The notes under the pieces are model-generated. The model searched no databases. It was not told the origin of the DNA and saw only the letters and a program-made list of their open reading frames with translations. From an uncultured Candidatus Saccharibacteria bacterium (GTDB taxonomy: Bacteria; Patescibacteriota; Minisyncoccia; Spechtbacterales; 2-12-FULL-38-22), in contig CAYMUG010000002.1 of assembly GCA_964393575.1 (NCBI GenBank), positions 341 through 64,340 on the forward strand: a DNA stretch of 64,000 nucleotides, read 5' to 3'. Position numbers and translations under genes: made by a program. This document shows positions 5,578 through 44,341 of the stretch, one piece after another. The number at the start of each line of letters is the position of its first letter. The first letter of the stretch is position 1.

Positions 5578-6531
5578 ATGTTATATATTATGCCTGATAT
5601 AGCCCCACAAGTTATAGTTGTTGTACTAAACTGGAATAACGCTGAAGATACTTTGCAATGTTTAGAGTCCTTGAAGCAAGTTGAATACCAAAGTTTTAAA
5701 GTTATAGTTGTGGACAACGGTTCTAATGATGATTCTCCTAAGGAAATAAAAAGTTTTCTCTACCAAACAAATGCTTATACTTCAGAATTTATCCAGAACT
5801 CCGAAAATTTAGGGTATGGCGGGGGAAATAATGAAGGGATAAGGATTGCTTTGAGAAAAGGGGCGGAATATGTTTTGATTTTAAATAACGATGTATCAGT
5901 TTCCCCCAGGTTTATCAATAAATTAGTAGAAGTAGCTGAGGCCAGAAAAAAAGCAGGGGTTTTGGCACCCTCTATATATTATAAGCGGGAACCTGAAATT
6001 TTGTGGTACGGAGGCCAAGCGCATATCAATTGGAAGAAGGTAGATAAAGAAATGATTAATATGTCTCTTGAAGGTAAAGAGCTTCCGGAGAATGCGCAGG
6101 TCAGGAGGACTGAATTTGTAACCGGAGCTTGTATGTTTGTAAGGAGAGCGGTTTTTGAAGAAGTAGGATTGTTTAGGGATGATTATTTTTTGTATTTTGA
6201 AGATGCTGATTTTTCTGAACGGGTAAAAAGTTCGGGGTGGAATTTGGTGTGGGTGCCCCATGCTAAAGTATGGCACAAGGTTTCGGCGACCAGTAGGGCG
6301 AGTTTGGGTGCGCCGAATATGAACTATTATAATACAAGAAACTCTATGTTGTTTGTGCGGAGGCATGGACCGGCTTGGGCAGGGTGGTATATACATTTGT
6401 GGGCTTACTTAAAATATATTAAACAAATAACTAAGCTTGTATTTTCCAGAAAATATAACCCGGAAACATCCAGGGCTGTATTAAGAGCAATAAAGGATTA
6501 CTATGGAAACAACTTAGGCAAATATAGTTAA
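5578..6531 (+). CDS. family 2 glycosyltransferase
   Basis: GT-A fold motifs are present (VVVLNWNN, VDNGSNDDS, a DxD-like motif). Confidence 0.8.
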   Translation: MLYIMPDIAPQVIVVVLNWNNAEDTLQCLESLKQVEYQSFKVIVVDNGSNDDSPKEIKSFLYQTNAYTSEFIQNSENLGYGGGNNEGIRIALRKGAEYVLILNNDVSVSPRFINKLVEVAEARKKAGVLAPSIYYKREPEILWYGGQAHINWKKVDKEMINMSLEGKELPENAQVRRTEFVTGACMFVRRAVFEEVGLFRDDYFLYFEDADFSERVKSSGWNLVWVPHAKVWHKVSATSRASLGAPNMNYYNTRNSMLFVRRHGPAWAGWYIHLWAYLKYIKQITKLVFSRKYNPETSRAVLRAIKDYYGNNLGKYS

Positions 6532-6654
6532 GCTCACTCCGTTCCGACTTAACGTAGGAACTCCGTTCACACTATTACAATAACCATAACCATTACATTA
6601 TTGCGCGAAGCGCAATAATTCACAATTCTTGATTCATGATTCTTAATTCTTTTT

Positions 6655-7815
6655 ATGAGCGCAGCGAATAAAATAAAAGTAGCCATAGATTGCCATAAAT
6701 TAGAAGATAAAACCGGAGCCCATAGAGCCGGTATAGGCAGACATCTATACCGTTTTCTTGAAGAGGCATCAAAACAAAAAGAACTTGAAGGCAAATTCAA
6801 ATTTTATTTGTATTTTAAAAGCGGAGTACCAAAAGACATACCTTTTTTGCAGGAGAAAATATTTGTTAACAAAGTAGCAAAACTACCTTTCTTTTTTCCG
6901 TTTTTCCGCCCCTCTTTTAATGTATTTTTTCATATAGCTATACCTATTTTAGCGTTAAAAGACAGAATAGACGTTGCGTTTTTCGCTTCGTTTATGCACC
7001 CCGCATTTTATATAGGCAAAACCGCAGTTGTTTTGACAAACGATATCTACTATGAATCCTCGCAACGCAGTCAACCGCTAAAATACCGCATAGGTTATAA
7101 ACTTTTTGCCACGTGGGCAGCCAAACGAGCTACAACCATAACCACGCAAACATATGCATCACGCAAAGAAATATCCAGATGTTATAATGTGCCTGAAGAT
7201 AAAATTATAGTTGTGCCTTTGGGGGCGGATTTTACAGAATTTACGCCGGAGGATAACGAAAAAGACAACTATATTTTATATGTGGGTCAAGCGTTCCCAC
7301 GTCGACATCTTCGCGAAACTATAAATGCGTTCAGGATTATTGCACCTGAATTTCCTCAACTGAAATTTATTGCAGTAGGATTAGATAAGTATAATCCTCC
7401 CATCATCGATGATTTGGCAAAAAAAACCAACAAAGAACTGGGGGAGGAAAGGGTGATAAGGAAAGAATCTGTTTCCGACGAAGAATTAAAGGAATTATAT
7501 AGAAAGGCACAAACATTTGTATATATTTCTTCTTCGGAAGCAATGGGCTTACCTCCACTTGAAGCCCTCGCTTCCGGCACTGTTCCTGTCGTTGCTGATA
7601 CACCCACTACCAATGAAATATTTGAAGATAAAGCGTTTTTTGTAGAGAATACAGAAAGCCCCCCAGCAATAGCGGAAAAAATAAAGAGATCAATTACAGA
7701 TAATGATAGAAGAAATTATATTCTGCAGAACAAAGATAAGATTTTACAAAAGTACACATGGAAAAAACACACCGATAAAATGTTGGAATTATTTAAGCAT
7801 ACCGTTCAAAAATAA
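6655..7815 (+). CDS. GT1/GT4-type glycosyltransferase
   Basis: The C-terminal EAMGLPPLEALASGTVPVV motif is typical of GT-B retaining transferases. Confidence 0.8.
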   Translation: MSAANKIKVAIDCHKLEDKTGAHRAGIGRHLYRFLEEASKQKELEGKFKFYLYFKSGVPKDIPFLQEKIFVNKVAKLPFFFPFFRPSFNVFFHIAIPILALKDRIDVAFFASFMHPAFYIGKTAVVLTNDIYYESSQRSQPLKYRIGYKLFATWAAKRATTITTQTYASRKEISRCYNVPEDKIIVVPLGADFTEFTPEDNEKDNYILYVGQAFPRRHLRETINAFRIIAPEFPQLKFIAVGLDKYNPPIIDDLAKKTNKELGEERVIRKESVSDEELKELYRKAQTFVYISSSEAMGLPPLEALASGTVPVVADTPTTNEIFEDKAFFVENTESPPAIAEKIKRSITDNDRRNYILQNKDKILQKYTWKKHTDKMLELFKHTVQK

Positions 7816-9413
7816 TGAAAAATCTTTTCACTAAACAAAACATTATATTTTCTGCATCATTAGCACTTGTTGTGTTAACAGGGTTAGGTATTATTCCCCG
7901 TTTTGCCGCGTTTTTAGTTTTAGGTTTGTATCTTTTTTACCTTGTTTTTGCCCCTCTAAACAGAGGAGTGGAAATATTTTTACGCTCAATCCCTATTTTT
8001 ATAGCTTTGCCAATAACCGAGTCCTTCGATAATTTTAATATGTGGCGCTTGCTTTTATTGGTGTTATTTTTGAAATGGGCTTGGGAGGTAAATATTTTTA
8101 GGATGTTGAGACGCGGACTGGATAAGCTTTTATACGGAGGTCTGAATATAAGAAAATATAGCATTGAGTTTTTCGGAATTTTATTTTTCGTATTTGCAGG
8201 TATTTCTGTTTTTGTAGCTTTGGACACAACAGCTGCTGTAAAACGCCTTATTTATCTTGCAAACGGGGCCTTCTTATTTATCATTACAGTTTCATTAATA
8301 AGAAGTAACAAAAATTATCTCAATGGTTTTCTCAAAAATTTTGCTTATTCGGGTATTCTGGTTGTTGTCATAGGGTTTGTACAATTTATTTCCGCTTACT
8401 TTACTCAGCCGTGGATTTTTCATTACTGGTGGGGGCAAGTCGTAAGCTTAAATTTATACGGCAGGGAATGGGCTGATATTGTTACATTTTTCGGAAATAC
8501 ATGGTTTAGTTATTCAGGGGACACTCTGCGTCTGCGAATGTTCAGTATTTTCCCGGACTCTCACTCTTTCCCGTTGTACGTAATTATGACAATACCCGGT
8601 CTTTTGTATATGGTTTCCCGCAAACTATCTGAATTTAAAAATTATATATCAAGCAAAAATTATAAATTTAAGCTCATACGTTTTTTCAAATCAAGGAGGA
8701 ATTTATTTTTTGTTTTCGGTTTTGCCTTGATGAATTTAGCCCTAATTTTATCCGGAACCCGGGGTATCTGGGTAAGCGGACCGTTAGCTGCGCTAACGTT
8801 TTTACTTTTTTGGAAATTTAAAACAGATAAACGCTTCACTAAAGTTGCCACCGCCTGGCTAACTGTGTTTTTAATTATGTTTGCGGCATATTTTCTAATA
8901 GTATCATTTCCGCAATTTCAGGATACGGAATTCAGCTCTTCAGCTACCGTATCCAGAATCAAAAGTATTACTGATTTCGGAGAGATATCCAATAAGGGGC
9001 GTATAAATATATGGCAAAAAACACTAAGCTTTACAGTGAAAAGCCCTGTATGGGGTACCGGTATAGGAAATTATCCGCTTGTTCTCTATGAGCCGCAGTC
9101 GGCTATGCAGGCGGGTGCCAGTGCCCATAATATATATTTGCATATAGCGTCCACTATTGGCATTTTTGGCTTGTTGGCGTTTTTGGGTTATATTTTTGAA
9201 ATTGTACGAAGGGGTATTATATATATAAAAAATAACCCACGCACGCAAGAAGGGTTGTATGCTGCCTTGACCCTTTTTGCGTTAGCGTGGGTGGGGGCAT
9301 ATCTTATGACTGACGCTACGCTTTATGACGGGCGGGCGCTACTTGCTTTTATGGCATTTACGGGCATAATTACAGGCCTCCTGTCTCAGCCCATTAAAAG
9401 AACTAACAACTAA
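7815..9413 (+). CDS. polytopic membrane protein, O-antigen ligase/polymerase-like (Wzy_C)
   Basis: About 12 TM segments and an LSGTRGIW loop motif. Confidence 0.6.
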   Translation: MKNLFTKQNIIFSASLALVVLTGLGIIPRFAAFLVLGLYLFYLVFAPLNRGVEIFLRSIPIFIALPITESFDNFNMWRLLLLVLFLKWAWEVNIFRMLRRGLDKLLYGGLNIRKYSIEFFGILFFVFAGISVFVALDTTAAVKRLIYLANGAFLFIITVSLIRSNKNYLNGFLKNFAYSGILVVVIGFVQFISAYFTQPWIFHYWWGQVVSLNLYGREWADIVTFFGNTWFSYSGDTLRLRMFSIFPDSHSFPLYVIMTIPGLLYMVSRKLSEFKNYISSKNYKFKLIRFFKSRRNLFFVFGFALMNLALILSGTRGIWVSGPLAALTFLLFWKFKTDKRFTKVATAWLTVFLIMFAAYFLIVSFPQFQDTEFSSSATVSRIKSITDFGEISNKGRINIWQKTLSFTVKSPVWGTGIGNYPLVLYEPQSAMQAGASAHNIYLHIASTIGIFGLLAFLGYIFEIVRRGIIYIKNNPRTQEGLYAALTLFALAWVGAYLMTDATLYDGRALLAFMAFTGIITGLLSQPIKRTNN

Positions 9414-41525: not shown

Positions 41526-42203
41526 CTATATATTTGATAATTCTTCCACGCTTTTCCATACTTGAGCGCTGATTTGCTTGTAATCTTCTTCAGAAGAGTG
41601 AGTATATTTGAAAGGTACTCCGACCTTTATTGTAATATTCCTTTTTCGGAAAATTACTTCCTTCAACCTCATATTGATTCCGCCTTGAATATAAACAGGG
41701 ATAACTAAAGGATTGCTATGTTTAATAAGATAACCAACACCTCGTCTTGCCTTTCGTTTGCGCCCACGATTAGTTTTTGTTCTGCGTCCTTGCGGAAACA
41801 TACCCACCACGCCGTTGTTATGTAAAATTTGCAGCGATTCCTGCAATGCACTCTCTATGCCTATTCTCTTATCTAATTTTAAACTTCCATATATCCATAT
41901 TATTTGACCCTTAACAGGCACTCTAAACAATTTATCGTGAGCAAGATGCCTAACAGGAAATAGGTTCGGAAAAGCAACACTCAGCATAAAAGGGTCCGCC
42001 CAGCTTACATGGTTTGATATTATAAGTACAGGTTGCCTGCCCTCTTTTAACTTTTTAGTTGTGGACTCATCTTCGTATACCGCTTTCCAGTTTAAAAAAA
42101 ATCGAAAAATTCCCCGCGAGATCCTCCAGGTGGTTTTATACATAAATTTTGCTATCCAATATCTCATCTTTCGCAAACCTATTATTTTCTTACATTTTAC
42201 CAC
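41526..42203 (-). CDS. plsC: 1-acyl-sn-glycerol-3-phosphate acyltransferase family protein
   Basis: The NHVSWAD (HxxxxD) and FPQGRRT motifs are present. Confidence 0.8.
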   Translation of the reverse strand: MVKCKKIIGLRKMRYWIAKFMYKTTWRISRGIFRFFLNWKAVYEDESTTKKLKEGRQPVLIISNHVSWADPFMLSVAFPNLFPVRHLAHDKLFRVPVKGQIIWIYGSLKLDKRIGIESALQESLQILHNNGVVGMFPQGRRTKTNRGRKRKARRGVGYLIKHSNPLVIPVYIQGGINMRLKEVIFRKRNITIKVGVPFKYTHSSEEDYKQISAQVWKSVEELSNI

Positions 42204-42450
42204 AAACTATCCTAAAATTTTATCTGAAAATAGGGTTTTTGTTTGAAGTAAATTGTTTATCGTATGAATAGTTCCTCTATATTCCTCCTATATTAGTACT
42301 GCCTGTCAGATATTTTCATATTGATATATATAAATACCTTCTTAGTGGCATCTTTAACAAGCTATTGAGCTATTACGAGTATATTGACAAATATCTCTCG
42401 TTACCATTAAGATGATGGGGTGCCCTGTATGCGGACCTTAGGAGCGTGTC

Positions 42451-42606
42451 ATGAGCGAAAACACCGCACACGAGACCGGTTCTACGGAGAACACCCTTCC
42501 TATTCTTTTCAACGTTGCCGAAAGGGCGACTGATGTTTCCGTAGAATCTAAGCGTTTCGGAAGCGAAAAAGACACATTCTTAAACGGCAGCAGCGATACG
42601 GTGTAG
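42451..42606 (+). CDS. candidate graspetide (microviridin-like RiPP) precursor peptide, 51 aa; not in the supplied ORF track
   Basis: ATG preceded by AGGAG at a 6-nt spacing. The leader-like stretch TLPILFNVAERA is followed by a Thr/Ser/Asp/Glu/Lys-rich tail (TDVSVESKRFGSEKDTFLNGSSDTV). It sits immediately upstream of the ATP-grasp ligase. Confidence 0.5.
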   Translation: MSENTAHETGSTENTLPILFNVAERATDVSVESKRFGSEKDTFLNGSSDTV

Positions 42607-42709
42607 TAAACACTTAAGTACCTTTAAATAACGTGACATAGGAGGGGGTGCGGTAAATGCCGCGCCCCCAATATATGTACGGCAACCGAATGCGGAAAGG
42701 AGGGTACAG

Positions 42710-43693
42710 ATTATACTTATTATTTCTCACCACGAAGACACACATACTCTTCATGTATGCGAATTATTAGATAGTATTTACGGCGTCGAATACTGCGTAC
42801 TGGATTACAAGGAATATCCCGCTAACTTAAATATATCTTATGTTTTTGGGGCAAATAACAAAAACCTTCTCATTGAAATAGACCAAAATCGCACAATTGA
42901 ATTAAAGGATATTCGTTCTGTGTGGTTTAGAAGGCCTACATCCCCCCTCGCCTCTAACAAGGTTGAAGATAGAAATATACGTCAATATATAGAACAAGAA
43001 TCGAATGTTATGCTGTCTAATTTGATTCACGCAATACCCGGACAAAGATGGATTAGCAACCCAATCAATATGGAGCAGGCAGCGTATAAACCATATAACA
43101 TCAGAGTGGCTCAAGAGATTGGTTTTGAAATTCCTGAAACAATTATTTCCAATTCTCCGGAAGGTGTAGAGAAATTTATGCACAACCTGAACTTAGAATA
43201 TGTTGCACTAAAACCCGTGGAAACACCCTGGATTAAGTCAACTGACAATTCCTTTTTATTTTTTACAAAAAAAATACATAAAAACCGGATTTCGGAATGG
43301 CGAAAACAAATACAAGTTTGTCCGGTTATACTACAGGAATATATAGAAAAAAGCGTGGAGTTGCGCATTACTGTAATAGACAACCAGGTTTTTCCATGCG
43401 CGATACACTCTCAACGATCAGAACTCACCAAAGAAGACTGGCGAAAATATGACATTGACAACACGCCGCACGAAACATTCCAACTTCCGGAAGATATAAA
43501 ACAAAAATGCGTCGCCTTGCTAAAAAATCTCGGGATTAGGTTTGGATGTATTGATATGATTTTAACCCCTGAGAATCGATATGTGTTTTTGGAGATAAAT
43601 CCCGCCGGACAATGGCTTTGGATTGAAGAATTAACCGGTCTTTCCATTTCTAAAACTCTTACACACGCATTGGTTTATCCAACTGAAGCGTAA
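42710..43693 (+). CDS. ATP-grasp ribosomal-peptide maturase (MdnC/MvdD microviridin-ligase family) with a non-ATG start
   Basis: A pre-ATP-grasp domain (ILIISHHEDTHTLHV...SVWFRRP) is followed by the ATP-grasp fold. The reading frame is open from 42632. A strong AGGAGG is followed 6 nt later by ATT at 42710. No ATG, GTG or TTG occurs in frame before the GTG at 42920. Confidence 0.75.
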   Translation: MILIISHHEDTHTLHVCELLDSIYGVEYCVLDYKEYPANLNISYVFGANNKNLLIEIDQNRTIELKDIRSVWFRRPTSPLASNKVEDRNIRQYIEQESNVMLSNLIHAIPGQRWISNPINMEQAAYKPYNIRVAQEIGFEIPETIISNSPEGVEKFMHNLNLEYVALKPVETPWIKSTDNSFLFFTKKIHKNRISEWRKQIQVCPVILQEYIEKSVELRITVIDNQVFPCAIHSQRSELTKEDWRKYDIDNTPHETFQLPEDIKQKCVALLKNLGIRFGCIDMILTPENRYVFLEINPAGQWLWIEELTGLSISKTLTHALVYPTEA

Positions 43694-43698
43694 AGTGC

Positions 43699-43727
43699 CT
43701 AACCTGTCTCATCGACAGGTTTTTTAT
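43699..43727. terminator. terminator aacctgtc-tcatc-gacaggtt + T6
   Basis: It lies between convergent genes. Confidence 0.7.
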
Positions 43728-44254
43728 TATTGTTTATTTTTTATCTCTTTAATGTATTCATCTAATGAATTGAAGCCCATTTTTTTACGGCGAACATCAA
43801 CATTCTCTTTGTCTTCAATGGGAAGAGGTTTTACCTCTCCGTCCTCTGTTTTTGTAAATTGCGTGCCATAGAGTTGCCTATCCCCGGAATTGACACGTAC
43901 TCTATCTTCCAAATATGCAATTAGTTTTTGCTCTACCTCATCTTTGGGTTCTTTTTTCATTAAATTTAGAGCTTTCTTTTGAAACCTTACATCATCAGCG
44001 TGCTGAGTTAATAGCCAGGCATTTGTAGACGCTTCTTTGCCCACTTTAGATATTGTAGGCCACTCAATTTGGTTAATAATTTCCTTTACTTTTTTGGTGT
44101 GTTCTCGCGCAATATTTTGTATTTTTTTCATACATTCTTCAGTCATGCCTTTTTCTCTGCATTCCGCACGCATATTTTGATCTTTTTCAGCCATATTGTT
44201 TAATTGTTTAGCGATTTTTTGATACTCCATACGAATAACAGAACTTTGCAACAA
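43727..44254 (-). CDS. hypothetical cytoplasmic protein (175 aa)
   Basis: ORF. I recognise no domain. Confidence 0.45.
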   Translation of the reverse strand: MLQSSVIRMEYQKIAKQLNNMAEKDQNMRAECREKGMTEECMKKIQNIAREHTKKVKEIINQIEWPTISKVGKEASTNAWLLTQHADDVRFQKKALNLMKKEPKDEVEQKLIAYLEDRVRVNSGDRQLYGTQFTKTEDGEVKPLPIEDKENVDVRRKKMGFNSLDEYIKEIKNKQ

Positions 44255-44315
44255 AAATTTTAATTACGAATTCATTTTATGTATATCTGACGATATTTTC
44301 AATGTTTAATACGGA

Positions 44316-44341
44316 AAATCGCCCGCATTTGCGGGCGATTT
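44316..44341 (-). terminator. terminator aaatcgcccgc-attt-gcgggcgattt
   Basis: It lies downstream of the MMPL gene. Confidence 0.6.

Follow-up and report, generated by a model that had tools for sequence, protein, structure and literature searches.

A probable graspetide cassette of the CPR branch with an ATT codon at the homologous start position of its ATP-grasp ligase gene

Genes and sequence features of the locus

In the window, by which we mean the whole 64-kb stretch of DNA analyzed here, we identified a locus that combines a gene for a 51-aa precursor peptide, a gene for an ATP-grasp ligase and a gene for a DUF6624 protein, a three-gene make-up that is conserved in related loci (Table 1). 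In the public annotation, the precursor gene is uncalled and the ligase gene is represented by a 257-aa form that starts at GTG 42920 (P0001), a truncation that results from an ATT at the place where the relatives have a normal start codon. The first-pass annotation of this region had proposed an unannotated graspetide-type cassette with a leader-plus-core precursor, a ligase of the MvdD/MdnC superfamily and a non-canonical start codon. All of its statements on the sequence were checked and are correct, and the proposal itself is supported by profile matches, relatives in the PDB and the aligned start positions of homologous genes.

Table 1. Genes and predicted signals of the locus, in window coordinates
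Feature	Position	Strand	Basis
Promoter-like TTGACA, 18 nt, TAAGAT	42384..42413	+	10/12 consensus; ~38 nt 5' of precursor ATG
Shine-Dalgarno AGGAG of precursor gene	42440..42444	+	Direct reading; 6 nt before ATG
Graspetide precursor gene, 51 aa	42451..42606	+	Leave-one-out profile, family alignment
11-bp stem-loop GGGGGUGCGGU / AAAU / GCCGCGCCCCC, no U-tract after it	42644..42669	+	Folding; between precursor and ligase
Shine-Dalgarno AGGAGG of ligase gene	42698..42703	+	Direct reading; 6 nt before ATT 42710
ATP-grasp graspetide ligase, 327 aa from ATT 42710	42710..43693	+	Pfam, NCBIfam, PDB, relatives
Intrinsic-terminator-like hairpin (8 bp) and T-run	43701..43727	+	Directly past ligase stop
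DUF6624 (PF20329) protein, 174 aa from TTG 44251	43727..44251	-	Pfam 84.8 bits; conserved third gene
Promoter-like TTGAAA, 17 nt, TAAAAT	44274..44302	-	10/12 consensus match only; upstream of DUF6624

The precursor ORF extends from ATG 42451 to TAG 42604-42606, which is followed by TAA, and encodes MSENTAHETGSTENTLPILFNVAERATDVSVESKRFGSEKDTFLNGSSDTV; both the 51-codon frame and its Shine-Dalgarno sequence are present as described in the first pass. The peptide matched no model in Pfam or NCBIfam and is absent from a public collection of 15 billion proteins. We built a profile from 13 related precursors encoded beside ligases, leaving out the window sequence, and searched it against the 1839 six-frame segments of the window, where the 51-aa ORF was the only significant match (E 1.7e-6; runner-up, 0.73). 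Furthermore, a homologous small ORF adjoins the ligase gene in 13 of the 15 distinct closest ligase loci, a positive outcome for the search for co-conserved small ORFs that had been suggested as a check. The shortness of the ORF and the lack of a matching model might be taken to indicate a chance frame, with the true substrate encoded elsewhere; however, the leave-one-out match, the homologs next to the ligase, the dedicated Shine-Dalgarno sequence and the position directly upstream of the ligase gene make this very improbable.

The leader of the precursor contains the motif L16-P17-I-L-F-N-V-A-E24, and the family consensus in this region is LP-h-h-F-x-F-x-E. The first reading of the leader as P-x-x-F...E agrees with Phhx(1,2)h, the signature published for graspetide leaders (PMC8939145), with P17-I-L-F-N-V falling within the first 30 residues. 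In the family alignment, P17 (across 14 members), E39 and D49 are invariant, and E24, G37 and T50 are nearly so. The core region spans approximately S33-V51 and includes the family-conserved G37, E39, D49 and T50, and most family members have a hydroxyl residue two to three positions past E39. The window precursor retains every family-conserved residue. As in graspetide loci generally, a small precursor with a Phhx(1,2)h leader and a core containing Thr/Ser and Asp/Glu adjoins the ligase gene. The expected Thr/Ser donors and Asp/Glu acceptors are indeed conserved, but the Lys residues that had been read as potential omega-amide partners are not; the family has no conserved Lys, and we therefore do not predict a lactam. 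The core subtype of the window, ..G-S-E-K-D-T....G-S-S-D-T-V, also occurs in three related loci (L009, L006 and L084) and was not found in the supplementary lists of Makarova et al. 2022 (PMC8939145).

Profile searches of the 327-aa ligase, likewise proposed in the first pass, passed the Pfam thresholds for the MvdD pre-ATP-grasp domain (PF21068, residues 2-118, 50.8 bits, cut-off 27) and for RimK (PF08443, 32.7 bits, cut-off 21). The NCBIfam models for MvdC, MvdD and the SAV_5884 maturase align with the ligase end to end, with scores far under the curated cut-offs (TIGR04185, 229.4 against 425 bits; TIGR04184, 209.6 against 475; TIGR04187, the SAV_5884-type maturase, 225.2 against 350). The best relatives of known structure are MdnB, MdnC, AMdnB and CdnC, and MdnB (5IG8) matches residues 1-324 at E 8e-44. 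Hence, the earlier assignment to a microviridin-family ligase stands at the level of the superfamily but not at that of the MvdC, MvdD or SAV_5884 families. In an alignment of 18 sequences (the window ligase and 17 relatives), all 50 invariant columns are kept in the window sequence, and no relative of more than 43% identity was found in the GTDB species genomes and JGI metagenomes.

The start of the DUF6624 gene at TTG 44251 is that of the public annotation, with ATG 44230 as an alternative. In 12 distinct related loci, the DUF6624 gene lies directly downstream of the precursor gene, on the ligase strand; in the window, unlike in every relative, it is inverted, which indicates that the locus has been rearranged. 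The AlphaFold model of the protein (pLDDT 97) showed no fold match in the PDB. The precursor and ligase genes of the two-gene cassette originally proposed are therefore confirmed but its gene count is not, and the flanking "hypothetical protein", previously treated as a mere neighbor, is a member of the module.

The other surrounding genes were rejected as cluster members: the related loci lack counterparts of the MMPL transporter and the dehydrogenase, and a histidine kinase and an acyltransferase recur there only sporadically. We judge the MMPL, dehydrogenase and histidine kinase genes to be background synteny. Among the genes examined at 38.8-47.3 kb, there is one ATP-grasp gene and no GNAT, in agreement with the earlier remark that no N-acetyltransferase is adjacent, and neither a leader peptidase nor an exporter is evident at the locus. 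The PADLOC defense-system models yielded no matches for the precursor, ligase or DUF6624 proteins.

The 131-nt region that holds the stem-loop between the precursor and ligase genes has a folding energy of -45.4 kcal/mol (z = -4.7). In the relatives, a hairpin of similar strength lies directly past the precursor stop codon, its position being conserved in 12 loci; the observed hairpin energies were reached by 21 of 480 random 90-nt control windows. With E values of up to 1 allowed, a search of 42150-42760 against Rfam produced no match, a search of the whole window likewise produced none, and no tRNA was found. We also considered whether the ligase Shine-Dalgarno sequence is hidden by pairing with 42618-42625 and freed by ribosomes terminating on the precursor gene. 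This pairing is present in the minimum-energy fold, and the unpaired probability of the sequence rises only from 0.22 to 0.34 when the footprint is masked (0.21 for the precursor Shine-Dalgarno sequence); the model is not supported. The promoters and the terminator were called solely from their fit to consensus sequences, and promoter-like sites are no more frequent in the region than in shuffled sequences, so that the site at 42384 is no more than a positional suggestion. The terminator-like hairpin sits where the ligase and DUF6624 genes converge, and the promoter-like site at 44274..44302 suggests that DUF6624 could form a separate transcription unit.

The start of the ligase gene

The frame of the annotated ORF 42920-43693 is open back to 42632, immediately after the stop codon TAA 42629-42631, and we confirmed that it contains no ATG, GTG or TTG before GTG 42920. 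Thus, 96 codons precede the first canonical start, compared with no more than 41 in any other stop-to-stop frame of the window that is 150 codons or longer. The strong AGGAGG noted in the first pass just upstream of ATT 42710 is present, with a 6-nt gap. In the relatives, the ligase start consists of aGGAGg, a spacing of 6-9 nt and then ATG or GTG; ATT 42710 aligns with M1 of these proteins and the position of the Shine-Dalgarno sequence is identical. Most relatives start at the residue aligned with the ATT and the others at most 12 codons upstream. Of 133 comparable loci, only the window has no canonical start codon at this aligned position or in its vicinity. The conservation of the N-terminal 70 residues relative to the rest of the ligase (ratio 0.63) lies within the family range of 0.53-0.71. 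Translation of the ligase most probably begins at AUU 42710, aided by the consensus AGGAGG 6 nt upstream, and we put the chance that this AUU is a working start at slightly better than even. The first-pass annotation had held that translation must start here; the position is exactly that of the relatives' start, but the necessity was deduced from DNA, and recent loss of the start codon could also account for the ATT.

Indeed, a single locus without a canonical start among 133 is the pattern also expected from a fresh inactivating mutation, namely, one ATG-to-ATT substitution that would leave a decaying cassette from which no functional ligase is made. The rearrangement of the locus fits with such decay, as does the behavior of AUU mRNAs in vitro, which are translated more weakly and compete poorly with AUG mRNAs (PMC5499595). 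However, the 327 codons are intact with 50 of the 50 alignment-invariant residues retained, the N-terminal 70 residues show no relaxed conservation, the consensus Shine-Dalgarno sequence is still present at ideal spacing and the precursor is conserved at all family positions, so that the loss would have to be very recent; we consider inactivation unlikely. Less probable still is a true ATG start, with the T at 42712 due to a mistake in sequencing or assembly or to a variant carried by a minority of the population. The contig is metagenome-derived, and the GTDB species genomes and JGI metagenomes offer no closely related genome for comparison; nevertheless, the position lies outside any homopolymer, and a separately assembled Logan contig (run SRR9010616), which comes from the same sample and may share reads with the window, shows 100% identity over 7464 bp, a stretch that covers the ATT. 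Exact look-ups of P0001 and P0122 retrieved no contig.

Starts elsewhere in the region were rejected. Initiation at the out-of-frame ATG 42657 or ATG 42690, followed by a programmed frameshift or an indel error leading into the ligase frame, might be suggested by AGGAGGGGG, which precedes ATG 42657, and by the location of ATG 42690 20 nt upstream of the ATT and one base off in-frame. Yet the 11-bp hairpin holds ATG 42657 in its loop, and its 5' arm constitutes the apparent Shine-Dalgarno sequence of that codon, ATG 42690 has no Shine-Dalgarno sequence, there is no slippery heptamer of the X XXY YYZ type, and the relatives' starts and Shine-Dalgarno sequences coincide with, or lie close to, the ATT and AGGAGG of the window; the chance of such a start is minimal. 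Equally far-fetched is the possibility that the annotated 257-aa product is the real functional protein. GTG 42920 is the first canonical start and, as such, is picked by gene callers, but it has no good Shine-Dalgarno sequence, the relatives are all full length, and the shorter form would lose residues 1-70 of the 117-residue pre-ATP-grasp domain (PF21068 match 2-118), including D10, H12 and P37, which are invariant across relatives.

Predicted biosynthesis and implications

We are highly confident that the cassette is a graspetide module of the CPR (Patescibacteria) branch. The full explanation that we favor, to which we assign a probability of about 0.7, is a three-gene omega-ester RiPP module with an AUU-started ligase and the following predicted ring chemistry. 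Transcription would be driven by the promoter-like site near 42384, run through the precursor, the stable stem-loop and the ATP-grasp ligase and stop at 43701-43727, in the terminator-like hairpin. The ligase would bind the leader of the precursor at LPILFNVAE (P-h-h-F-x-F-x-E in the family) and, with ATP, would activate the conserved acidic side chains E39 and D49 of the core, which could then be joined to Thr/Ser hydroxyls (candidates S33, T42 and T50) as macrolactones. For the CPR branch, ring formation and connectivity are both predictions from sequence. DUF6624, encoded convergently just downstream, would contribute as the conserved third component and may be a tailoring enzyme or a partner protein. 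Initiation of the ligase at AUU 42710 is expected to occur at a low rate and, together with the stem-loop that follows the precursor, might keep the enzyme far below its substrate. We find doubtful a bolder version in which the ATT has been selected, the AUU and the stem-loop throttle the ligase, DUF6624 with its own promoter represents a new class of graspetide tailoring or partner enzymes specific to CPR bacteria with small genomes, and E39 and D49 form an undescribed ring pattern.

The genomes of CPR bacteria are tiny, and few natural products are known from them. The presence of graspetide loci in these bacteria was predicted in 2022 (Makarova et al., PMC8939145), and in the literature on the CPR branch we found no characterized member. 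The locus described here adds a diverged member (43% identity) with a precursor subtype that was not found in the published lists of that work. It is also a concrete case of standard annotation losing graspetide cassettes, the precursor being uncalled and the ligase clipped by one non-canonical start. Two aids to genome mining are strengthened, namely, the pairing of a precursor gene with a following DUF6624 gene and the stem-loop directly 3' of the precursor gene. Should AUU initiation prove functional, the locus would illustrate how, in nature, the choice of a start codon sets the enzyme-to-substrate stoichiometry in a RiPP operon.

Comparison with known systems

Initiation factor IF3 selects against AUU starts, and infC of Escherichia coli is an example of an AUU-initiated bacterial gene. 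Similar to such genes, the ATT of the window occupies the start position behind a strong Shine-Dalgarno sequence, and low initiation efficiency could hold the protein scarce; in contrast, the ATT is not conserved in the relatives compared. In lanthipeptide and lasso-peptide operons, stem-loops separate the precursor gene from the genes that follow it. The window family likewise has a stable hairpin directly 3' of the precursor stop, a position compatible with a high precursor-to-enzyme ratio, but the window hairpin lacks a U-tract and, in the relatives, the next gene encodes DUF6624 rather than the ligase.

The locus resembles the microviridin system (MdnA; MdnB and MdnC; PDB 5IG8 and 5IG9) in the layout of the ligase, with a pre-ATP-grasp and an ATP-grasp domain, and in the precursor, with its Pro-hydrophobic leader and a core rich in Thr/Ser and Asp/Glu. 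It differs in that there is one ligase instead of two, no GNAT, no TxKYPSDWEEY core and no PFFARFL leader, and in the scores of the ligase far under the MvdC/MvdD equivalog cut-offs. From the SAV_5884-type system (TIGR04187), it is set apart by the sub-cut-off ligase and by a precursor that matches no NCBIfam model, the TIGR04186-type target peptide included.

DUF6624 is a frequent graspetide neighbor (Carter et al. 2026, PMC13097080). PF20329 is present in 81.8% of 22 group-42 BGCs, and the DUF6624-associated graspetide groups also include 18, 20 and 23, with many examples from candidate phyla (PMC13097080). The window shares with group 42 the minimal make-up of synthetase, precursor and DUF6624 and the occurrence in candidate-phyla genomes. 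However, the representative precursor of that group (Komeilibacteria, MKKNSTPKPLILDRL...DSGGTD) scored -1.5 bits against the window precursor family profile, and no peptide like it was found in the related loci retrieved; we rejected an identification with group 42 through this precursor, given the lack of similarity.

The first-pass annotation had suggested a distinct graspetide group. The cassette is distinct from the microviridins but not new, since its top-ranked ligase relative and related precursors are already among those reported by Makarova et al. 2022. The CPR graspetide loci designated "Branch 1" comprise an ATP-grasp protein, precursors of clusters 1029 and 2658 and a "cluster 23" protein (PMC8939145). 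The window differs from them in a ligase identity of only ~42%, in the inverted DUF6624 gene and in the ATT in place of a canonical start. By inspection, the core signature TxxxTx(6-10)Dx(1-4)D is absent from the window peptide; this signature is found in most, not all, Branch 1 members and is also absent from the Yanofskybacteria cores (PMC8939145). Locus L003 of Parcubacteria GW2011_GWA2_40_143, the ligase of which ranks first among the relatives in the genome collection (42% identity, E 1e-87), is a listed Branch_1 locus. The Branch 1 precursors of cluster1029 (from L003) and cluster2658 (Yanofskybacteria, identical to the precursor of locus L008) align with the window peptide, the leader of which fits the signature Phhx(1,2)h of Makarova et al. 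The window counterpart of the "cluster 23" family protein is DUF6624 at 43727-44251, and the middle gene of L003 encodes another member of the QH.D / YGTQF family to which this DUF6624 protein belongs.

Ligase domains and start codon

Read from ATT 42710, the ligase is a 327-aa product that clears the Pfam thresholds for two domains: MvdD pre-ATP-grasp (PF21068), at 50.8 bits over residues 2-118, and RimK-type ATP-grasp, at 32.7 bits. It aligns end to end with NCBIfam ribosomal-peptide maturase models (MvdC, 229 bits; SAV_5884 type, 225 bits; MvdD, 210 bits) and with the grasp-with-spasm model (142 bits), scoring well below the curated cut-offs of all four; judged by these scores, it is a member of the superfamily and an equivalog of no named type. 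Among solved structures, the microviridin ligases MdnB (5IG8, 8e-44) and MdnC (5IG9) come closest, followed by AMdnB and CdnC. In a search of 5.8 billion proteins, the best homologues were only 43% identical, several of the named ones coming from CPR lineages (Wildermuthbacteria, Uhrbacteria), and the window's own gene was present only as a 257-aa product from GTG. Aligned with 17 relatives, the window ligase keeps 50 of 50 invariant columns; D10, H12 and P37, which are among the invariant residues, all precede GTG 42920.

As the first-pass annotation had stated, the frame of the listed ORF (42920-43693), open back to 42632, contains no ATG, GTG or TTG before GTG 42920, and AGGAGG precedes ATT 42710. 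For all stop-to-stop frames of at least 150 codons in the window (40% G+C), we counted the codons that separate the upstream stop from the first canonical start; the ligase frame gave 96 and no other frame exceeded 41, and the anomaly is thus specific to this gene and no genome-wide habit. Related loci, 160 in all, were drawn from metagenomes and a species-representative genome collection; the N-terminus could be aligned in 133, of which 119 are distinct. The M of the relatives' M-I-L-V-I-T aligns exactly with the window ATT (I-I-L-I-I-S), and aGGAGg lies 6-9 nt upstream in relatives, as in the window. The aligned codon is ATG, GTG or TTG in 70 of the 133 loci, and all 133 have a canonical start within -12 to +3 codons of this position; in the window, no such codon occurs between 26 codons before it and 70 codons after it.

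The simplest history would be an ancestral ATG that underwent one G-to-T change. AUU is the start codon of E. coli infC, and IF3 discriminates against it. In vitro, AUU mRNAs are translated more weakly and compete poorly with AUG mRNAs (PMC5499595). We favour the reading that AUU 42710 works as a start at a low level (probability about 0.55). The conservation ratio between the 70 residues before GTG and the rest of the ligase is 0.63 (family range 0.53-0.71), so this region has continued to evolve as a coding sequence to the present or until very recently; that the start codon has recently been lost appears unlikely. An error or polymorphism at the ATT is less probable again: Logan contig SRR9010616_732950, assembled separately, is identical over 7464 bp, ATT included, which argues against an assembler artefact, though the reads may be the same. 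The genome collection and metagenomes searched held no relative more than 43% identical to the ligase. Minor options share the remaining probability.

Precursor family and DUF6624

Features of the cassette and of related loci
Feature	Coordinates	Strand	Basis	Remark
Promoter-like TTGACA-18-TAAGAT	42384-42413	+	consensus match only	
Precursor Shine-Dalgarno AGGAG	42440-42444	+	sequence	six bases 5' of ATG
Precursor ORF, 51 codons	42451-42606	+	sequence	ATG 42451 to TAG 42604-42606, then TAA
11-bp G+C-rich stem-loop	42644-42669		fold	between precursor and ligase
Ligase Shine-Dalgarno AGGAGG	42698-42703	+	sequence	six bases before ATT 42710
Terminator-like hairpin and T-run	43701-43727	+	consensus match only	
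DUF6624 gene	43727-44251	-	PF20329, 84.8 bits	annotated 'hypothetical protein'
11-bp G+C-rich hairpin AAATCGCCCGCATTTGCGGGCGATTT	44316-44341			between MMPL gene end and DUF6624 promoter-like site
Alternative peptide before DUF6624	L056:4426-4644			small peptide, ...SKEWDYDQD
Alternative peptide before DUF6624	L078:4494-4613			small peptide, ...GKDWDFDSD

The proposed 51-codon ORF and its upstream AGGAG were confirmed. Individual matches to the 51-aa peptide, and to the small ORF beside the closest ligase (related locus L001), are weak; nearly all are small ORFs adjoining ligases on the same strand. Read together, their aligned sequences make up one family, with a leader motif, L-P-h-h-F-x-F-x-E, in which P17 is invariant and E24 almost invariant, with G37-x-E39 in the core and with a C-terminal D49-T50. 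The cores nearest to that of the window, KRFGSEKDTFLNGSSDTV, are QKYHCEVDTYDYGSSDTI (L009), EKLGCEIDTMFLGSPDTI (L006) and TVYGEEIDTMLYDHTDTI (L084). A profile of 13 other family members, with the window peptide left out, matched the 51-aa ORF at E 1.7e-6, the sole significant match among the window's 1839 six-frame segments; with the ligase domains, this bears out the graspetide cassette reading in its essentials. The family precursor is present in 13 of 15 distinct loci with a ligase at least 39% identical to that of the window; one of the other two ends close to the ligase, and the second has no precursor in its available flanks. As no Lys is conserved in the family, only ester links are predicted, which would join E39 and D49 to Thr/Ser partners.

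The hypothetical protein said to flank the cassette does adjoin it, but the cassette is not limited to two genes: the protein is a DUF6624 member and the third gene. DUF6624 begins no more than about 100 nt 3' of the precursor, on the ligase strand, in 12 distinct related loci, where the order is precursor-DUF6624-ligase or ligase-precursor-DUF6624; only in the window is it inverted so that it converges with the ligase, and there it has a promoter-like site of its own. Its closest homologues are 50-56% identical, and the invariant residues (D17, Q18, R21, K62, H77, D79, R110, Y121-Q124, R148) suggest a defined site. The AlphaFold model is very confident (pLDDT 97.2); its fold, helical for the most part with one small beta hairpin, found no informative match among solved structures. 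In two more distant CPR loci (L056, L078), the position immediately 5' of DUF6624 is taken by another type of precursor, so the precursor-then-DUF6624 pairing extends beyond a single precursor family.

Several related loci differ in content. A Wildermuthbacteria-like metagenome contig (L087) encodes DUF6624 twice, at 308-652 and 2576-2962, with about 2 kb between the copies. The L083/L085 locus carries the ligase and DUF6624 with no recognisable family precursor; upstream of DUF6624, it has a 113-codon open frame (L083:2100-2438) which, by eye, may encode a helix-turn-helix regulator. A PlsC-type acyltransferase gene (PF01553) adjoins the cassette in the window (41526-42203, minus strand) and in L001 (2265-2894), with 33% identity; the match is weaker in L011 and missing from the other related loci, and the gene is likely residual synteny and not part of the cluster. 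In L001 (JGI Ga0256727_1000444), a divergent second ATP-grasp gene with a weak PF21068 match lies about 1 kb 3' of the first ligase, and the genes after it are three small ORFs of 84, 63 and 53 aa and one radical-SAM gene; this region (6076-8990) is probably a second RiPP cluster adjoining the first.

RNA and transcription signals

The promoter-like site and the terminator-like hairpin bracket the two plus-strand genes. The 131 nt around the intergenic stem-loop fold at -45.4 kcal/mol (z = -4.7), and hairpins of similar strength but unrelated sequence lie directly 3' of the precursor stop in relatives. Of 480 random 90-nt control windows drawn from these loci, only 21 reached the observed energies, and 6 of the 12 loci had none that did. 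Intergenic hairpins occur in lanthipeptide and lasso-peptide operons; the post-precursor hairpin resembles these and would make the precursor more abundant than downstream products. A 37-codon ORF in another frame (42657-42770, plus strand) was judged spurious, its ATG lying in the hairpin loop and its apparent Shine-Dalgarno sequence being the 5' arm.

In the minimum-energy fold, GUACCUUU (42618-42625), just past the precursor stop, pairs with GAGGGUAC (42700-42707), overlapping the ligase Shine-Dalgarno sequence, with a pairing probability of about 0.57. Pairing probabilities did not support a masked site freed by ribosomes finishing the precursor: a footprint mask barely frees the site. The RNA features of the cassette match no Rfam family, and neither a tRNA gene nor an Rfam match that reaches the gathering score occurs anywhere in the whole window (1-64000). 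The hairpin at 44316-44341 probably represents the terminator of the MMPL gene as seen from the opposite strand.

Relation to published graspetide groups

DUF6624 is frequent in graspetide groups 18, 20, 23 and 42 and was suggested to be possibly an undiscovered biosynthetic enzyme (Carter et al. 2026, PMC13097080). Group 42 comprises 22 clusters, 82% with DUF6624, and includes many candidate-phyla examples (PMC13097080). Its representative precursor does not match the window's precursor family, and the cassette was therefore not filed under group 42.

CPR graspetide loci were previously placed on two ATP-grasp tree branches, with Phhx(1,2)h leaders and an uncharacterised 'cluster 23' protein (Makarova et al. 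2022, PMC8939145). The supplementary tables assign the ligase of Parcubacteria GW2011_GWA2_40_143 (L003) to Branch_1, with precursor cluster1029; in the published alignment, the family of the middle gene at this locus shares the QH.D and YGTQF motifs with the window DUF6624. The listed Yanofskybacteria precursor cluster2658 is identical to the L008 peptide, and no sequences of the window-like core subtype were found in the supplementary files available. Similarity among Branch 1 precursor clusters was reported to stop at the leader motif (PMC8939145), whereas clusters 1029 and 2658 and the window peptide align here across leader and core. The cassette is a diverged new example of the predicted CPR graspetide modules, which combine a ligase, a precursor and DUF6624. 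It is distinguished by the ATT at its start position, by a DUF6624 gene in inverted orientation, and by a precursor and full ligase left uncalled in the public annotation.
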